Source of the DNA: Acinetobacter phage vB_AbaM_14/CRR8
Direction: 5' to 3' (one strand)
Length of the DNA: 64,000 nucleotides
Sequence record: PV611675.1
Shown here: piece by piece, positions 1,848 to 31,903 of the stretch
Layout of the letters: every line of letters starts with the position of its first letter
Position numbering within the stretch: the stretch's first letter is position 1
Translations under genes and position numbers: made by a program
Notes under the pieces: generated by a model
What the model saw: the letters and a program-made list of their open reading frames with translations, nothing else
What the model was told of the DNA's origin: nothing
The model's database searches: none

Positions 1848-3825
1848 AGTAGCTAAGTTTCTCTCTGTATTTGGCTTTGAGATTGATACGGCTCAACTAG
1901 AAAAGTTTGATGCTTTAACACGAGGTGTTAGGGCTTCAACAGTTAAATTAGCTCGTGATTTAAGAGCTACAAACACTCAACTTACTCAGGTATCATCTAA
2001 GTTAAAGTCTGTAAATAATGGACTTAATTCAGTTAACTCACGTAAGGGTACTAATAGTTTAGCTGGTGGTTATGCCAGTTTATCAAGAAACGTAAATGTG
2101 GCTCAAACTTCTTTAGTAAGGATGAACACAACAGTTTCAAATATTGAGCCTAAATTAACTCAGCAAGCTGTTACAGTTGCCAACCTTGCAAGGTCTTGGG
2201 GTCATTACTCTCGTGAAGTTAGACGTGCCAATGAAGATTTAAGAAACAGACCTACACATGTAACTCCTGTAAGACCTTCTAGGGCTGGGTTTGCTACAGG
2301 TGCTGTCGCTGGAGCTGCTGCAAGTAGTGGTAGAGGTGGAGGTGCTGGGGCTGGACTTTTAGGAGGCATGGTAGGTAGATTCGCTGGCAACTTTGCCCCT
2401 TCTGCTGCTTTAGCTGGTGGTGCAGTAACTGCTGGTTATGCTGCCAAAGAGTTGATTCAAGTTGGTCGTGAATATCGTAAGATGAGACAGGTATTACTTG
2501 CCTCTTCTGATTCTCAAGCTGAGTTCAACAGAAACTTAGATTATGCAGAGAAAGTGACAAACAGATTAGGTACTAACGTAATCGAGTTTGGTTCTGCTTA
2601 TGCTAAAACACTACAAGCTGCCAAAGGTAAGCTTACACTAGATCAGACAGAAAAGCTATTCGAACAATTCTCAGAGTTGATGGTAGTTTTAGGTTCTAGT
2701 GATGACGACCAGAAAGGTATCTTCCGAGCAATGTCACAGATGTTCTCGAAAGGTAAAATCCAGATGGAAGAGGTCAACCAGATGGCTGAACGTAACGTTC
2801 CAGCTCTGGCTATGTTGACACGAGCATATAAAGAACTTGGTATGACTCAGGATGAGTTTGAGAAAGCACAGAGGGAAGGTAAATTAGACCCTACCAAGTT
2901 CTTGCCACTATTTGGTAAATATGCTAGTGAGTTCGCTAGAAACAACGATGCCTTAAACAAAGCATTACAATCTAGTGTTACACAACAAGGTATCTTCATG
3001 AACCAAATGAGGAAACTTGCTGACCAAATCATGGAAGCTGGTTTAGATAAGTTACTTGGTCAAATGTTCCAAGGATTAACTAAATTAGGTACTGCTCTTA
3101 CACCACTAGTTATGTGGCTTGTTAAAGTAACTCTAGGATTTGTTGAGTTCACTAAAGCTATGGTTGACTGGTCTAAAGAACATCCGATTATCGCTGGTAT
3201 GTTACTTGGATTGATCGGTGGATTCATCGGCTTAGGTAAAGCAATGAGAGCTGGTGTTCCTTTAGCTTTGGCACTGTTTGGTGTTCTTATTAAAGGTTTA
3301 GCTGGACTTAAAGTTGCTCTGATCCGTACTGGTATCTTAGCTATTTTCGTTGCTGTCGGTGAAGTATTAGCTGCCCTTTATGAGCATATGAATGGTGAGA
3401 ATAACTGGTTGTCTGTAACTATCGCTTACTTATCGTTGTTTGGTGAAAACCTTAAGAACGTCTATGAAAACTTCATGATACTTATGGCAGCGATTAGAAG
3501 AGGTATTGGAGATAGCTTAATTGGTGAGTTCTTCTCTAAGTTATTCAACTTTGATTTTAGTACAGCATTTAATGGACCTAACTCTGGACAGAATTCTGGT
3601 AGGCCACAGTTATCACCTGTAGGTAGTACATTGGCTCAACAGAATCAAGCAGCGGAAAACTTAAGGAATAATACTGCACCTTATCAGAAGAGTTTACCTG
3701 CTCCAGCTAAGCCAGCCTTCTATGGCAGCTTTGATGCCAAGTATACTCTTGATGTTAAGAGTGGCAATCAAATCTTCTCTCAATCGAAGACACAAACCAT
3801 CAACTTAGGAGGATTGCAAAAATGA
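1831..3825 (+). CDS. tail tape measure protein
   Basis: 664 aa, long helical regions, Gly/Ala-rich low-complexity segment (GAVAGAAASSGRGGGAGAGLLGG), hydrophobic segments, position after the chaperone; ATG 1831 with GGAG RBS (track lists TTG 1810). Confidence 0.75.
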   Translation: MTTKVEVAKFLSVFGFEIDTAQLEKFDALTRGVRASTVKLARDLRATNTQLTQVSSKLKSVNNGLNSVNSRKGTNSLAGGYASLSRNVNVAQTSLVRMNTTVSNIEPKLTQQAVTVANLARSWGHYSREVRRANEDLRNRPTHVTPVRPSRAGFATGAVAGAAASSGRGGGAGAGLLGGMVGRFAGNFAPSAALAGGAVTAGYAAKELIQVGREYRKMRQVLLASSDSQAEFNRNLDYAEKVTNRLGTNVIEFGSAYAKTLQAAKGKLTLDQTEKLFEQFSELMVVLGSSDDDQKGIFRAMSQMFSKGKIQMEEVNQMAERNVPALAMLTRAYKELGMTQDEFEKAQREGKLDPTKFLPLFGKYASEFARNNDALNKALQSSVTQQGIFMNQMRKLADQIMEAGLDKLLGQMFQGLTKLGTALTPLVMWLVKVTLGFVEFTKAMVDWSKEHPIIAGMLLGLIGGFIGLGKAMRAGVPLALALFGVLIKGLAGLKVALIRTGILAIFVAVGEVLAALYEHMNGENNWLSVTIAYLSLFGENLKNVYENFMILMAAIRRGIGDSLIGEFFSKLFNFDFSTAFNGPNSGQNSGRPQLSPVGSTLAQQNQAAENLRNNTAPYQKSLPAPAKPAFYGSFDAKYTLDVKSGNQIFSQSKTQTINLGGLQK

Positions 3826-26868: not shown

Positions 26869-27510
26869 ATGTCTAAGCATGTAGAATTTGGTGTTGAAGA
26901 GTTTAATAAGTTTTTGGAACAAGAGTTATATCCAGCTGTATTTGAATTTAATGGGGCATGTGGTAAAGACCCAGAGAAGGTTGAAGATATTGATGATGCA
27001 GCCGAAATGATTTTAAATGAATGTAAGCGTGTGATTGAAGAGTGTGATGAAACAATTGCAGCTTATAAAGCTCGTGATACAAAAGAGCGTTTGGATGGTG
27101 TTGTTGATGTGTATTGGACAAGTGCTCAGTTACAACGATTATTAGATGTGCTTATGGTGAAATTCCCTAATATTATTGCACACATGAAAGAGAATTATGA
27201 GTTTGACGAAGTTCTTCAGTTGAATCATGCTCTTGGTTTGTTCCCTATTGCAATTACGTTAGGTCAAGGTACAATCCTTTCTGGTCATCGTATTGCATTG
27301 GCAGCACGTCGAATTATTGCAAACAACAAACAGAAGTATACCTCTAATATTGAAGAGGCTCTTGACTGGGAGAAACATCGACCTGCTGGTGTTGTACTGC
27401 GTAAGTATGAATATAATGGTCAAGAGTTTTATTGTTTGAAACGTACATCTGATGATTATGTTGTTAAGCCTCATACATTTGAGGATGTAAAATTAGGGGA
27501 CTTAGTATGA
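26869..27510 (+). CDS. MazG-like all-alpha NTP pyrophosphohydrolase
   Basis: EExxE..D motif (NECKRVIEECDETIAAYKARD); GGAGGA RBS. Confidence 0.45.
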   Translation: MSKHVEFGVEEFNKFLEQELYPAVFEFNGACGKDPEKVEDIDDAAEMILNECKRVIEECDETIAAYKARDTKERLDGVVDVYWTSAQLQRLLDVLMVKFPNIIAHMKENYEFDEVLQLNHALGLFPIAITLGQGTILSGHRIALAARRIIANNKQKYTSNIEEALDWEKHRPAGVVLRKYEYNGQEFYCLKRTSDDYVVKPHTFEDVKLGDLV

Positions 27511-27890
27511 CAAAGAAGTTGGTACGAGGTCCAGACAGAATACCGCCACCAGAACGTCAAGTAAGCTTTAGTGAGTTGACAGTTGGTGACAAGAAGATTG
27601 AACTTGTCCTCGAAAAATGTGGTGTGGATTTTGTATTGGAGAAACTTTGGGGGTTTGACACTAAACATAAGAGTGGCACACCTGAAGGGTTTTATGAAGT
27701 TAAAGAATGTCAACATAGGAATCGTGATGGAAAAATCGTCACTGGTAAACTTTATATTGGAGTCGAGAGACTTGATGATGAGTGGATTTTACAAGGCGCA
27801 CCGTCCGAAAAAGCTAAGTTGGCTGCAAAGCAAGATTTGTCACTGTACAGAGAACTTTCTAGTATGAGTCGATCAATACAGTCTTGCTAA
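27507..27890 (+). CDS. hypothetical protein
   Basis: 127-aa ORF, ATGA-coupled. Confidence 0.35.
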   Translation: MTKKLVRGPDRIPPPERQVSFSELTVGDKKIELVLEKCGVDFVLEKLWGFDTKHKSGTPEGFYEVKECQHRNRDGKIVTGKLYIGVERLDDEWILQGAPSEKAKLAAKQDLSLYRELSSMSRSIQSC

Positions 27891-27894
27891 ATGT

Positions 27895-27922
27895 GATCCA
27901 GCCTTAGTGCTGGATTTTTTGT
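27895..27922 (+). terminator. rho-independent terminator
   Basis: ATCCAGC-cttagt-GCTGGAT then T6. Confidence 0.45.
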
Positions 27923-27939
27923 TATATAGGAGTAATAAA

Positions 27940-30846
27940 TTGTCAGGAAAATATACATCAATCTTAATGCAAGAAACGAACTCATATGTTGATAGATTCC
28001 CACAGTTCGTTGATGCAATCACATTCCAAAAGGAGGATTTATTCTGGACTGAGAAAGAAATCAAAGTAGAGAAAGATGAACAAGACTTAAAGCATAACAT
28101 CTTGCATTCTCAAGTTCATGCTCTTATGTTTAACCAACGACTATTCACTAAGTATGAGGATGTCATTGGAAATGATTACTGGATCGGTGTTGTACACAAG
28201 AAATACAAATGTCAAGAGATTCGTCGACTAGCCATTTGTTTTGCTGATGTGGAGAATAATATTCACTTCCCATTCTACCGTCGAGTGAATGAAGTGCTGG
28301 GAACTCATAATGATGAGTTCTATGATGCATTTGAAACAGACCCTATCTTGGTTGAACGTGTCAAATTCATGCAAGAGTTGGTGGCATCGAAAGATACACT
28401 AGCATCAATGGGTGGTTTTGCTTTCATGGAAGGTGCAGTATTATTTACAGCATTTGCTATGATTAAGTCTCTTGGTGTTAAAGGTCAGTCATTTATGCCT
28501 AACTTGATTTCAGGCATTAACATGTCGATCCTTGATGAGAATTTCCACATGCAGACAGCTTGTGAGATTTTCCGCACACAGTTAGAGTTAGAGAATCGTA
28601 CAGAAGAGGATATTAGAAAACTTAAAGAGGATATCTTTAAGCATGCACAGAACGTTTTAGAGCATGAGTACATTATCATTAACGCTATGTTAGCTGAAGG
28701 GGATATTCCTTTTGCTTCTAAAAAGGAACTTCAAGCTTTTGCTCGACATCGTGTTAACGTAGTTTTAACAACTCTTGGATTCCCAGAGTTAGCTACATTT
28801 GATGAGACTGATGATACTATCTCAGAATGGTTCTATGAGTTCATGGGTGGTTATACAAGTAATGATAATTTCTATTCTCGTGGTCGTAACTACAAGAAAG
28901 AGTTCTCTGCTGTTGACTACGACATTATCTCAAATGGTGCTGTTGAAGAAGTCCTTGCACAAATCCCTGATGAGTATTTAGATCAAATGGGCATTGACTT
29001 GAATCGTAAGTTTGAAAAGACTTTAGAAGAAGAGTTGGAAGCCCAACGACCTAAACGTAAGAAGCACAACAATGCTGAGGATGCTTTATATGTTCCAGAC
29101 TATAGTCGTGAACGTAAAGAGATGCAAGCACGTGGTGAAGCTCCTGAGTGGATGGCAACGGCTGGATGGCAGCTATTTAAGAAGAAATACCTCAATGGTG
29201 ATGCTAAAACTCCTAGAGATCAGTACATGCGAATTGCTGAGTGTTTGGCACAGTATGCACCTAAATCTTACCCTTCTTGGTGGAATGAGATTGACTACTG
29301 GAAAGGTAAAACATGGAAAGATGCATTCTTCCAGATCATGTGGGATGGCTTCTTAAGTCCTTCGACTCCTGTACTCTCTAACACAGGTACAGATTTTGGT
29401 ATGTCAGTGTCGTGTTCTGGTGCTGTGACTGAAGATAGTGTTGCTGGCTTCTATGATGCTCGTAAGATTAACGCTTTACTTTCTAAGGAAGGTTTTGGTA
29501 CTACGATTGATTTAGATCGTGTACGTGGACGTGGTAAGCCTATGAAGGGCGGTATCGCAAATGGTGCTCTCCCTGTGGCTCGTATGTTCCGTCAAGATGC
29601 TTTAGATATCAGTCAAGGCTCTCAGCGTCGAGGTGCTACTGCTTGGTACTACAACGTAGAAGGTTTAGACTTTGATGAGTTATTGCACTTCTTAGAATAC
29701 GACACTGATGGTAACAATGGTGGTTGGAAAATTACCAACGAACTTATCAACCGTGTTCTTGTTGGTGATACATTAGCCATTGAACGTATGAACAAAATTT
29801 TAGCTGTACGTCACCATGTCGGTCTAGGCTATGAATTGTTTATTGATAAAGTAAACGCTCGTCGTCCTAAGATGTATAAAGATCGTGGTATGATGGTTAC
29901 TACAAGTAACTTATGTACTGAGATTACACTGTTTAGTGATCCAAAACATACATTTACATGTGTGTTGTCAAGTGAGAACTTAGTACGTTTTGATGATCGT
30001 CCAAAGAACTTGGCATTCGTTGGTACAGTATTCCTTGACTGTGTGGCTGAAGACTTCATTCAGAAAGGTTCTAAGATCGAAGGTCTTGAAACTGCTGTTG
30101 AATTCACTAAGAAAGGTCGTGCTCTTGGTTATGGTACAATGGGCTTCGCTTCATACTTAATGCGTAACAACATCGAGTATGGCTCAATGGAATCATTCTG
30201 GAAGAATAAGAAGATTTACTCTACTATTGAAGCGGAAACAAAAGCAGCTTCTCGATGGTTAGCTAAAGAACTTGGTGAACCAGAATGGTGTGAAGGTTAC
30301 GGTGTTCGTAATACTCACTTGATGGCTATCGCTCCAACTAAGTCTACTGGCTTATTGATGGGTGGTGACTCAGAAGGAATCAACGTTCCATCTGCATTTG
30401 TATTCGCACAAGATACACCTGCTGGTACAGTATTCCGTATTGATCCATCATTCTTGTTACTGTTGAAGCGTAAAGGATTATACAACATTGATCCTGAGAC
30501 TAAGCGTATCACACCTGAAACAGAAGCCTTGTTGAAACGTGTGTCAGATAATTTAGGTAGTGTGCAAACATTAACTGATGTTCTGACAGATAAAGAACGT
30601 GCTGTGTTCAAGACAGCTTATGAAATTAACCAGTACCGTCATATTGATTTGTGTGCTCAGCGTCAAGAACATATTGACCAAGCTCAATCGATCAATTTAT
30701 TCATTGCGAATATGTCGGCTCAAGAGATTTCTAAGTTGTATATGTACGCTGCACTTAACCCTAACATTTTGAGTCTTTACTACCATACTGGTATTCGAGA
30801 TTCACGTATTGGAGAGAGTAAAAATGAATGCGAATCATGTATGTGA
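27940..30846 (+). CDS. ribonucleotide reductase, fused beta (NrdB/R2-like) and alpha (NrdA/R1-like) subunits, class I
   Basis: N-terminal ~350 aa: diiron ferritin-like motifs (ENNIH, FMEGAVLF, DENFH); C-terminal ~600 aa: NLCTEI thiyl loop, AIAPTKSTG, C-terminal CESC pair; one uninterrupted ORF; TTG start 7 nt after AGGAG. Confidence 0.8.
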   Translation: MSGKYTSILMQETNSYVDRFPQFVDAITFQKEDLFWTEKEIKVEKDEQDLKHNILHSQVHALMFNQRLFTKYEDVIGNDYWIGVVHKKYKCQEIRRLAICFADVENNIHFPFYRRVNEVLGTHNDEFYDAFETDPILVERVKFMQELVASKDTLASMGGFAFMEGAVLFTAFAMIKSLGVKGQSFMPNLISGINMSILDENFHMQTACEIFRTQLELENRTEEDIRKLKEDIFKHAQNVLEHEYIIINAMLAEGDIPFASKKELQAFARHRVNVVLTTLGFPELATFDETDDTISEWFYEFMGGYTSNDNFYSRGRNYKKEFSAVDYDIISNGAVEEVLAQIPDEYLDQMGIDLNRKFEKTLEEELEAQRPKRKKHNNAEDALYVPDYSRERKEMQARGEAPEWMATAGWQLFKKKYLNGDAKTPRDQYMRIAECLAQYAPKSYPSWWNEIDYWKGKTWKDAFFQIMWDGFLSPSTPVLSNTGTDFGMSVSCSGAVTEDSVAGFYDARKINALLSKEGFGTTIDLDRVRGRGKPMKGGIANGALPVARMFRQDALDISQGSQRRGATAWYYNVEGLDFDELLHFLEYDTDGNNGGWKITNELINRVLVGDTLAIERMNKILAVRHHVGLGYELFIDKVNARRPKMYKDRGMMVTTSNLCTEITLFSDPKHTFTCVLSSENLVRFDDRPKNLAFVGTVFLDCVAEDFIQKGSKIEGLETAVEFTKKGRALGYGTMGFASYLMRNNIEYGSMESFWKNKKIYSTIEAETKAASRWLAKELGEPEWCEGYGVRNTHLMAIAPTKSTGLLMGGDSEGINVPSAFVFAQDTPAGTVFRIDPSFLLLLKRKGLYNIDPETKRITPETEALLKRVSDNLGSVQTLTDVLTDKERAVFKTAYEINQYRHIDLCAQRQEHIDQAQSINLFIANMSAQEISKLYMYAALNPNILSLYYHTGIRDSRIGESKNECESCM

Positions 30847-30908: not shown

Positions 30909-30938
30909 GTTGACAAGCTAAAAAGTAATCATTAATAT
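30909..30938 (+). promoter_or_regulatory. sigma70-like promoter
   Basis: TTGACA, 17-18 bp, TTAATA/TAATAT, abutting a terminator hairpin. Confidence 0.4.
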
Positions 30939-30939
30939 A

Positions 30940-30970
30940 GGGACATGTCTTAGGGCGTGTCCCTTTTTTA
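30940..30970 (+). terminator. rho-independent terminator
   Basis: GGGACA-tgtcttagggcg-TGTCCC then T6. Confidence 0.5.
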
Positions 30971-30983
30971 TTGTGAGGTGATT

Positions 30984-31244
30984 ATGGGCTGGTTAAAAGC
31001 TAAGAAACAAATGGTTATAACCATAGGTGAAAATATCTACAAGGTTATTGAATTACGTAGAGATGATGGTAAGCTTTCAAAACTTCGTTTAAATCGTGTT
31101 GTTAATGGAGAGGTGGTCCCTTACATCCACAAATACATAACACTTAATGATGCTTGTTCAATCTATATTGATGGTGTGATTCGATATAAAGTTCAAATGG
31201 AAGATGGTAGCATAGGTTTTATTTCTGCTGGAGCAATACAATGA
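30984..31244 (+). CDS. hypothetical protein
   Basis: ATG after GAGGTG. Confidence 0.35.
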   Translation: MGWLKAKKQMVITIGENIYKVIELRRDDGKLSKLRLNRVVNGEVVPYIHKYITLNDACSIYIDGVIRYKVQMEDGSIGFISAGAIQ

Positions 31245-31903
31245 GTCTAATTGGTCGATGGTTTAAGGTAGTTGATGATCGTAAAATGCATGATCTGGAA
31301 ATCCTTAATGGTGATATCTTAAAGGTTCAAGATGAACATAAAGATGTATCTTGGGGTTACGGAGCAACTAAGGTTGAGTGTGTTCGTGGTGGTGAGAGTA
31401 GAGTTCTAACACTTTCAAGATTCAGTGGGTATTGGTGCTACTTTTCTGAAGGTATGATTAAAAAAGGTGAATTGGTTGAGGTCGAGCCTACATTTGAAGA
31501 TGATCAGAAGTCTGATGAAACAGAGTATTTGATGAAAGGTAAGAACGGTGAAAGATTGGCTGAATCTGTTAAAAACATTCGAAGTAAATCATACCTTCAT
31601 GCTCATGGTGTTGAATCTCTAGAAGATCGATACAACAACTGGATTGTTGAAAATATCCATGTGTACGAATTATTCTGTGAATTTGCGATCAAAGCTATTC
31701 AATCAGGTAAGAAAAAGATTTCTCATTGGTTGATTGTAAATCGCTTACGTTGGGAAGTGGAGATTGAAACTAAAGGGACATGTTATCAAGACAAAGACTT
31801 TAAAATCTCAAATGATTATATCGCTTTCTTGGCTCGTGACTTCATGAAAGATTATCCACAATATGGTGAGGTATTTACCATCAAGCAGATGAAGCGAGTA
31901 TAA
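31241..31903 (+). CDS. hypothetical protein
   Basis: 220-aa ORF, ATGA-coupled. Confidence 0.4.
   Translation: MSLIGRWFKVVDDRKMHDLEILNGDILKVQDEHKDVSWGYGATKVECVRGGESRVLTLSRFSGYWCYFSEGMIKKGELVEVEPTFEDDQKSDETEYLMKGKNGERLAESVKNIRSKSYLHAHGVESLEDRYNNWIVENIHVYELFCEFAIKAIQSGKKKISHWLIVNRLRWEVEIETKGTCYQDKDFKISNDYIAFLARDFMKDYPQYGEVFTIKQMKRV

Follow-up and report, generated by a model that had tools for sequence, protein, structure and literature searches.

Can the radical-generating beta subunit (NrdB) and the catalytic alpha subunit (NrdA) of a class I ribonucleotide reductase (RNR) be carried by nature on a single polypeptide that works without being cut? The question is raised by a gene at positions 27940-30846 of a 64,000-nucleotide stretch (hereafter the window) of Acinetobacter phage vB_AbaM_14/CRR8 (sequence record PV611675.1), in which an earlier reading made from the letters alone (the sequence-only reading) had described an NrdB-like half followed by a trimmed NrdA-like half. 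The alpha2beta2 complex of class I RNRs is weak and transient, and this hampers study of the ~32 Å (3.2 nm) proton-coupled radical transfer; a natural fusion, if true, would provide structural and radical-transfer work with a holoenzyme that has a fixed stoichiometry and does not dissociate. Our results suggest that the fusion is in all probability genuine and evolutionarily fixed, with a predicted single chain of 111 kDa that holds a complete beta and a complete alpha lacking an ATP-cone. With less assurance, we also lean towards the broader interpretation that this is the first recognised natural single-chain class I RNR, that such enzymes have arisen independently in phages at least twice, and that the protein would act as an uncleaved (beta-alpha)2 complex with the beta tail held at alpha.

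Two complete subunits in one frame

The frame on the + strand is open without interruption from 27907 to 30846, and both halves give Pfam matches, as expected from the sequence-only reading of one uninterrupted open reading frame (ORF) holding both class I subunits. The main parts of the gene are given below by window position. Residues are numbered from a conserved ATG at 27967; adding 9 gives the numbering from a TTG codon at 27940. Confidence values are those of AlphaFold2 (predicted local distance difference test, pLDDT).

27940-30846, + strand: fused nrdB-linker-nrdA coding sequence, 968 codons plus stop, with a product of 968 amino acids (aa) and 110.8 kDa
27967-28848, + strand: ferritin-like core of beta (NrdB), residues 1-294, matching PF00268, pLDDT mostly >90
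28849-28899, + strand: flexible stretch of the beta C-terminal tail, residues 295-311 (GYTSNDNFYSRGRNYKK), carrying Y309
28900-29046, + strand: tail segment predicted to be structured, residues 312-360, pLDDT 81-95 in the full-length model
28978-29091, + strand: insert of 38 residues, 338-375 (LDQMGIDLNRKFEKTLEEELEAQRPKRKKHNNAEDALY), without a counterpart in NrdB or NrdA of Acinetobacter phage MD-2021a (blastp)
29047-29091, + strand: linker core, residues 361-375 (RPKRKKHNNAEDALY), charged, variable and probably disordered
29092-30843, + strand: catalytic subunit alpha (NrdA), residues 376-959, with the Pfam lgN and lgC domains
30829-30840, + strand: C-terminal CxxC, C955-E-S-C958, on the flexible alpha tail, aligning to the CSSC of class Id alphas

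In a profile check that had been set beforehand, the N-terminal half was assigned to the R2 family: Ribonuc_red_sm (PF00268) matches residues 20-275 with an E value of 1.5e-30 and 107 bits, against a cut-off of 33.6. The C-terminal half matches Ribonuc_red_lgN (PF00317) at residues 399-477 (39.8 bits) and Ribonuc_red_lgC (PF02867) up to residue 928 (E 1.6e-65; 222 bits), both above their cut-offs. The motifs on which the two halves had originally been recognised (ENNIH, FMEGAVLF, DENFH, NLCTEI, AIAPTKSTG and CESC) are all present in the translation. The proposed order, beta first and alpha second with a covalent tether on the R2 tail, is borne out by the order of the Pfam matches and by blastp comparison with the stand-alone pair of MD-2021a. 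Fusion residues 3-337 correspond to the whole MD-2021a beta to its final residue and residues 376-958 to the MD-2021a alpha from its residue 4, and the 38-residue insert connects the last beta residue to alpha residue 4.

The beta half has the residues required of a radical-generating subunit. Across 59 phage betas, fused and stand-alone and down to 30% identity, the dimetal ligands (E64, E96, H100, E155, E191 and H194), the radical-site tyrosine Y104 (H100+4, the equivalent of Escherichia coli Y122) and the tail tyrosine Y309 (which corresponds to E. coli Y356 in radical transfer) are invariant, and W27, the W48 equivalent, is nearly so. Y309 also aligns with the tail tyrosine of Leeuwenhoekiella blandensis NrdB. 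The closest beta folds are the class Id dimanganese betas 6CWQ, 5OLK and 6SF5 together with the Francisella hispaniensis beta 9DWS, and the sequence match to solved betas is low (best E 6e-18). The R2 signatures claimed for this half therefore stand; the accompanying assignment of a diiron/tyrosyl-radical cofactor is not established, because the closest solved betas are these dimanganese enzymes and the Francisella protein. One further protein, of 829 aa (P0107), is beta-only: fusion beta residues 1-212 are matched at 81% identity, after which ~600 residues diverge. Neither an intein nor an alpha domain was detected in it; an insertion that has escaped recognition, or a contig of chimeric origin, could account for it.

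The alpha half is likewise complete. It contains the redox pair C483 and C665, the residues N648, C650 (thiyl radical) and E652, and the dyad Y938/Y939, and these catalytic and redox residues align to counterparts in class Id alphas. From its sequence, the C955/C958 pair is predicted to be the shuttle that re-reduces the active site via thioredoxin or glutaredoxin. This half had been thought to be trimmed; it is instead full length, and the stand-alone alpha of the closest unfused phage (580 aa; 58% identity) and class Id alphas of 574-585 aa align with it over their whole length. Its best sequence matches in the PDB are 6DQX (E 3e-81) and 6DQW (E 4e-69), of 574 and 585 aa, and an AlphaFold model of the alpha half reaches template modelling (TM) scores of 0.92-0.94 against class Id alphas. 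A tblastn search of the 64-kb window found no second nrdA or nrdB.

The predicted lack of an ATP-cone was upheld, as a Pfam search of the full protein gave no match to PF03477. NrdE, NrdAi and NrdAk never carry ATP-cones (10.1101/190033); hence, the absence of a cone is native and not a truncation, and it puts the alpha outside class Ia and still within class I. We place the enzyme within class I, in a cone-less group resembling NrdAi/NrdAk, and call it 'class Id-like'. Its score against the NrdE-prime model TIGR02510 (NCBIfam) is 432.7, below the cut-off of 602.25. NrdBi betas are marked by Glu rather than Asp as first ligand and by a strictly conserved Trp at Glu+7, and a Lys at Glu+4 is found only in the characterised NrdBi subgroup, the ancestral state being Gly (PMC6754362). 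In the phage betas the first ligand is the invariant Glu E64; W72 is invariant but lies at +8, with Tyr, the NrdBk state, at +7; and the subgroup Lys is absent, the residue being G68. The class Id enzymes of Flavobacterium johnsoniae, Actinobacillus ureae, L. blandensis and Facklamia ignava provide the closest solved structures for both halves and share the short cone-less alpha and Glu as first metal ligand. They differ in that their identity to the phage halves is only 20-33% and in that the characterised class Id enzymes are all two separate chains, whereas the phage RNR is one. Class Id is further marked by a Mn2(IV,III) cofactor that superoxide activates and by the lack of a tyrosyl radical.

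By sequence, the RNR ORF is that of a Saclayvirus-type Acinetobacter phage. The region is 99.7% identical in nucleotides to Acinetobacter phage phi1_092033 and 88-98.6% identical to 19 other Acinetobacter phage records (~100-112 kb, Saclayvirus members included), and the query is matched over its full length in all 20 of these 20 records. Nine records were inspected: in all nine the ORF is open from the conserved ATG for 959 codons with no indel, and it is a single coding sequence in the eight that are annotated, the ninth having no annotation there. No stop or frameshift between the halves was seen in any related genome inspected. The profile phrog_30939 (977 positions) spans both halves (2139.9 bits; residues 1-959 against profile positions 11-977). 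A survey of 5.8 billion proteins found the same architecture in seven 90%-identity clusters (P0001-P0007), of metagenomic or isolate origin, with 959-976 aa and 73-100% aa identity; the window protein is 100% identical to P0001. A comparison of two Saclayvirus subgroups gave ratios of nonsynonymous to synonymous substitution rates (dN/dS) of 0.006 in the tail, 0.017 in the linker (where dS is 0.53), 0.019 in the beta core and 0.055 in alpha. The low value in the linker indicates that the junction is translated and constrained by strong purifying selection.

The junction and its origins

The tail segment 312-360 contains EFSAVDYDII (DFDIF in stand-alone betas), short helices and a conserved MGIDLNRKFEK. 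The DYDII/DFDIF motif is kept in fused and stand-alone tails and is likely to be the alpha-docking determinant. Stand-alone tails share the motif NDNFY.RGRNYK.EF..DFDIF, which is followed by 3 to ~38 poorly conserved residues with ends that include …LDV, …VDLNNVVEL and …NIDPT..GV. As 3 to ~38 residues trail the motif, the docking determinant is internal and a free carboxyl end is unneeded in this clade, a conclusion for which the fusion itself provides evidence. An internal docking motif is a plausible pre-adaptation for fusion. The linker core, by comparison of the aligned clusters, varies in both sequence and length, with indels of 10-12 residues in other fused clusters, and so fits the expectation for a flexible connector.

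The full-length AlphaFold2 model (mean pLDDT 88.4; predicted TM score 0.69) gives high confidence for the beta core (1-294), values below 50 for the tail stretch with Y309 (295-311), 81-95 for the segment with DYDII and MGIDLNRKFEK (312-360), below 50 again for the linker core (361-377), high values for alpha (378-945) and below 50 for the CxxC tail (946-959). Such values agree with a flexible tail that leads into a structured docking segment, and then a flexible linker and alpha. Residues 295-311 also fall below 50 in a model of beta only, and the higher pLDDT of residues 312-342 when alpha is present is consistent with the segment being packed on alpha.

The closest unfused relatives have alphas of ~580 aa (58-60% identity) and betas of ~341 aa (64-69% identity) and come from ~90-kb phages, for example, MD-2021a and Edwardsiella phage vB_EtaM_ET-ABTNL-9. 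The gene order in MD-2021a is nrdB, nrdA (with a TAATG overlap) and then a glutaredoxin-like gene, for which no counterpart was found in the 64-kb window. These pairs and those in IMG/VR resemble the fusion in their order, tail motif, E-x-x-x-H spacing and lack of an ATP-cone, but they are two genes in different frames with a stop/start overlap, and their polypeptides are of 341 and 580 aa. IMG/VR yielded 3 fused loci and 13 unfused beta-then-alpha pairs, some as distant as 32% identity. The two genes abut or overlap in 12 of the 13; in the other (L022) a 260-aa ORF without a Pfam match lies between nrdB and nrdA (2505-3287), indicating that the nrdB/nrdA junction is an insertion site in this phage group. 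The seven fused clusters are monophyletic in neighbor-joining trees of both alpha and beta and are sister to the unfused sequences. This monophyly and the adjacency of the genes in unfused relatives point to a single fusion event from an adjacent gene pair. In an ancestor of Saclayvirus-like phages, overlapping nrdB and nrdA genes would have been joined in frame, the 38-residue insert replacing the stop/start overlap.

A second fusion was found outside this lineage. In a HMMER search of 1.84 billion representative proteins, the best 150 of 6089 matches were re-scored for each half, and among these only one protein besides the query lineage (P0297; L010 10001-13060) matched both. It has 1019 aa, comprises an ATP-cone, Ribonuc_red_sm, lgN and lgC, and is encoded on an 85-kb phage-like metagenomic contig; its architecture recurs in four relatives (P0367-P0370; 62-67% identity), one of which has an intein (1398 aa). 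Like the Saclayvirus-type fusion, it consists of a complete beta with its tail, a linker of ~30 residues and a complete cone-less alpha, with all catalytic residues. It differs in its low identity (~31%), its canonical ExxH beta of the L. blandensis type, its N-terminal ATP-cone and its unrelated, Pro/Gly-rich linker, and it lies outside the Saclayvirus clade. No fusion was present among its 58 IMG/VR relatives. The low identity, the unrelated linker, the position outside the clade and the unfused relatives argue for an independent second origin, and this lineage puts an allosteric ATP-cone, a radical generator and a catalytic subunit on one chain. The same contig encodes a 1478-aa ORF (L010 17139-21575) with RNA_pol_Rpb2_6 and RNA_pol_Rpb1_2, which appears to be a single-chain RNA polymerase of the multisubunit type. 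Other candidates were rejected. The 991-aa protein of Synechococcus phage S-CBWM1 (BFVD), considered as a third fusion, is an alpha with an intein, and a separate beta gene lies upstream; the sole full-length match in BFVD is the Aci01-1 protein itself. The long matches (700-1600 aa) in the representative search are intein-containing alphas.

Action of the fused chain and alternative explanations

Two fused chains would most likely pair beta with beta and alpha with alpha to form a (beta-alpha)2 homodimer equivalent to the alpha2beta2 holoenzyme. The oxidising equivalent would then pass from the beta dimetal site and Y104 to Y309, on to Y939/Y938 and finally to C650. The beta core would retain its normal flexible leash (295-311) and, as the join comes after the docking segment, should be no more restrained than in a normal holoenzyme, with a tail that would be unable to diffuse off alpha. 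With the covalent join, tail and alpha would no longer associate reversibly but within one molecule or one dimer. We would anticipate subunits fixed at 1:1, a weak tail-alpha contact that is kept at very high local concentration, no dissociation when dilute and no hybrids with the subunits of the host. The beta-then-alpha order would keep the CxxC redox tail of alpha free for multiple turnovers. Because there is no ATP-cone, no shut-off by dATP is expected, which would suit a lytic phage; the supply of deoxynucleoside triphosphates would be simplified to one gene with no ATP-cone brake and no cross-assembly with the host. Whereas the gene structure, the conservation, the inventory of residues and the ancestry are shown, we infer the oligomer, the cis or trans docking of the tail, activity of the chain without cleavage and the cofactor metal; the fusion would allow a direct test of cis versus trans docking.

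Several observations weigh against an intact chain that docks and turns over in this manner. The tail segment 312-342 already has a pLDDT of 65-87 in the beta-only model. Searches of the 64-kb window by tblastn and by a CxxC scan found no glutaredoxin, thioredoxin or small CxxC redoxin; hence, the host or another part of the phage genome must supply the reductant. A tblastn search of the phage collection with the MD-2021a glutaredoxin had no Saclayvirus among the matches listed (40 rows, with 469 further records). The linker contains a basic cluster, RPKRKK, that is a possible protease site, and the metal-ligand pair E96-x-x-x-H100 (window 28252-28266) has an additional residue compared with the canonical E-x-x-H.

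The basic cluster raises the possibility that the product is a polyprotein, cut in the linker by a protease of the host or the phage to give an ordinary alpha2beta2 enzyme, with the fusion serving only to ensure equimolar synthesis. The predicted disorder of the linker core (pLDDT <50 at 361-377) would be compatible with cleavage, and a basic P-K-[KR]-x-[KR] patch occurs in four of the seven fused clusters. However, the patch is missing from the other three, linker length varies, and the linker of the second fused lineage is unrelated and Pro/Gly-rich. To our knowledge, no protease is known to serve this purpose. Moreover, cleavage would be of little benefit since stop/start coupling in unfused pairs already gives near-equimolar synthesis. 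We regard this explanation as unlikely, although it survives better than those that follow.

It is also conceivable, if somewhat less probable, that two products are made, with an internal start such as M385 (window 29119) giving free alpha alongside the fusion; this alpha would act together with the fused beta domain or shift the stoichiometry. The ancestral alpha start codon is lost (…ALYVPDYSRERK…), and the first in-frame ATG downstream is that of M385, just past the linker and preceded by a purine-rich AAAGAG. However, AAAGAG touches the ATG and so leaves no usable spacing, and M385 is not conserved in the fused clusters, being Leu in four of the seven.

A degenerate N-terminal half, non-catalytic or with a structural or regulatory role, and an alpha that uses the radical of host NrdB would account for the unusual E-x-x-x-H spacing and for the weak match to solved betas (best E 6e-18). 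From E64 to W72 (window 28156-28182; helix B) there is likewise one residue more than in NrdBi. Both odd spacings are absent from every solved beta compared, but they are invariant in the 59 phage betas; as stand-alone phage betas down to 30% identity have them too, they are traits of the clade rather than marks of decay, and they may be helix bulges that alter the geometry of the metal site. The six ligands, Y104 and Y309 are invariant, dN/dS is 0.019, and the tail motif fits the phage clade and not a host-type tail. This explanation is thus very improbable.

Finally, a sequencing or assembly error that erased a stop or frameshift between two ordinary genes, for which nothing speaks apart from the rarity of such fusions, can be ruled out: 20 of 20 independent records match over the full length and the ORF is open in the nine inspected, metagenomic clusters at 73-81% identity are open as well, the junction shows synonymous change with almost no nonsynonymous change (as the dN/dS values reflect), and a single-base error would not yield a 38-residue insert.

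Related systems and flanking sequences

A genuine fusion of NrdB to NrdA has few parallels. Natural RNR fusions include Grx::NrdB, ATP-cone::NrdB and Grx::NrdA, where Grx is glutaredoxin (PMC6187632, 10.1101/190033), and a eukaryotic NrdD-NrdG fusion of a class III enzyme with its activase (PMC3019208). These known cases, often viral, join accessory or partner functions to a subunit, and none joins both core class I subunits. A RefSeq survey by the Sjöberg group sought combinations with Grx and ATP-cones, and NrdB::NrdA was not among them (PMC6187632). In a 2026 comparison of Acinetobacter phages the Saclayvirus RNR is listed with no remark on it, and we found no description of a natural NrdB-NrdA fusion in the literature. 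The photoRNR chimera, in which E. coli class Ia alpha is fused to the beta C-terminal tail (PMC11067019; PDB 8VHU), is similar in that a beta tail is held covalently at alpha, and it was made to get past the weak and dynamic alpha-beta contact. However, it is artificial and of reversed order, with alpha(1-753) in front and no more of beta than its last 35 residues; it lacks the beta core, the metallocofactor and the C-terminal redox cysteines of alpha, whereas the phage protein keeps both subunits and both tails.

The sequences of the fused RNR were already public and clustered; hence, what is recognised here is an overlooked architecture and not a new sequence family. Database labels for the protein include 'alpha subunit', 'large subunit', 'hypothetical protein' (Acba_22 and CP14) and, in Acinetobacter phage vB_AbaP_HB01 (L008 334-3240), 'deoxynucleoside kinase'. 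Because of such labels, Saclayvirus-type genomes seem to lack a beta on paper, and recognition of the fused beta corrects their annotation.

The signals that flank the gene are as follows.

27895-27916, + strand: terminator-like hairpin with a T-run after it, in the gap that separates the RNR gene from the upstream gene, whose stop is at 27890
27928-27932, + strand: Shine-Dalgarno sequence AGGAG, 7 nucleotides 5' of the TTG start, read off the sequence
30939-30964, + strand: terminator-like hairpin (11 bp, 6 of them G-C) plus a T-run, ~90 nucleotides 3' of the stop

The TTG at 27940 is likely to be the start, having the most support among the candidates. The GTG at 27907 is disfavoured because it is located within the upstream terminator-like hairpin. 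Several related GenBank records annotate the same TTG, and others the ATG at 27967.

Pfam gave nothing informative for the genes flanking the fused RNR. Directly 5' of it is a 127-aa ORF (window 27507-27890), which is called 'thymidylate synthase' in Pharokka-annotated relatives; as it has no Pfam match and is far below the size of ThyA or ThyX, this label is probably an annotation carry-over. Two genes downstream, a 220-aa ORF (window 31241-31903) matches the PinA peptidase inhibitor family in Pfam only weakly and below threshold, with 19.3 bits (E 0.0011) where the cut-off is 27. Some records annotate a putative ORF of 30-36 codons that overlaps the end of the RNR gene or lies just 3' of it. 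A promoter-like site, TTGACA-17 nucleotides-TAATAT, is also present 3' of the RNR stop, with the downstream hairpin directly after it (window 30910-30964).

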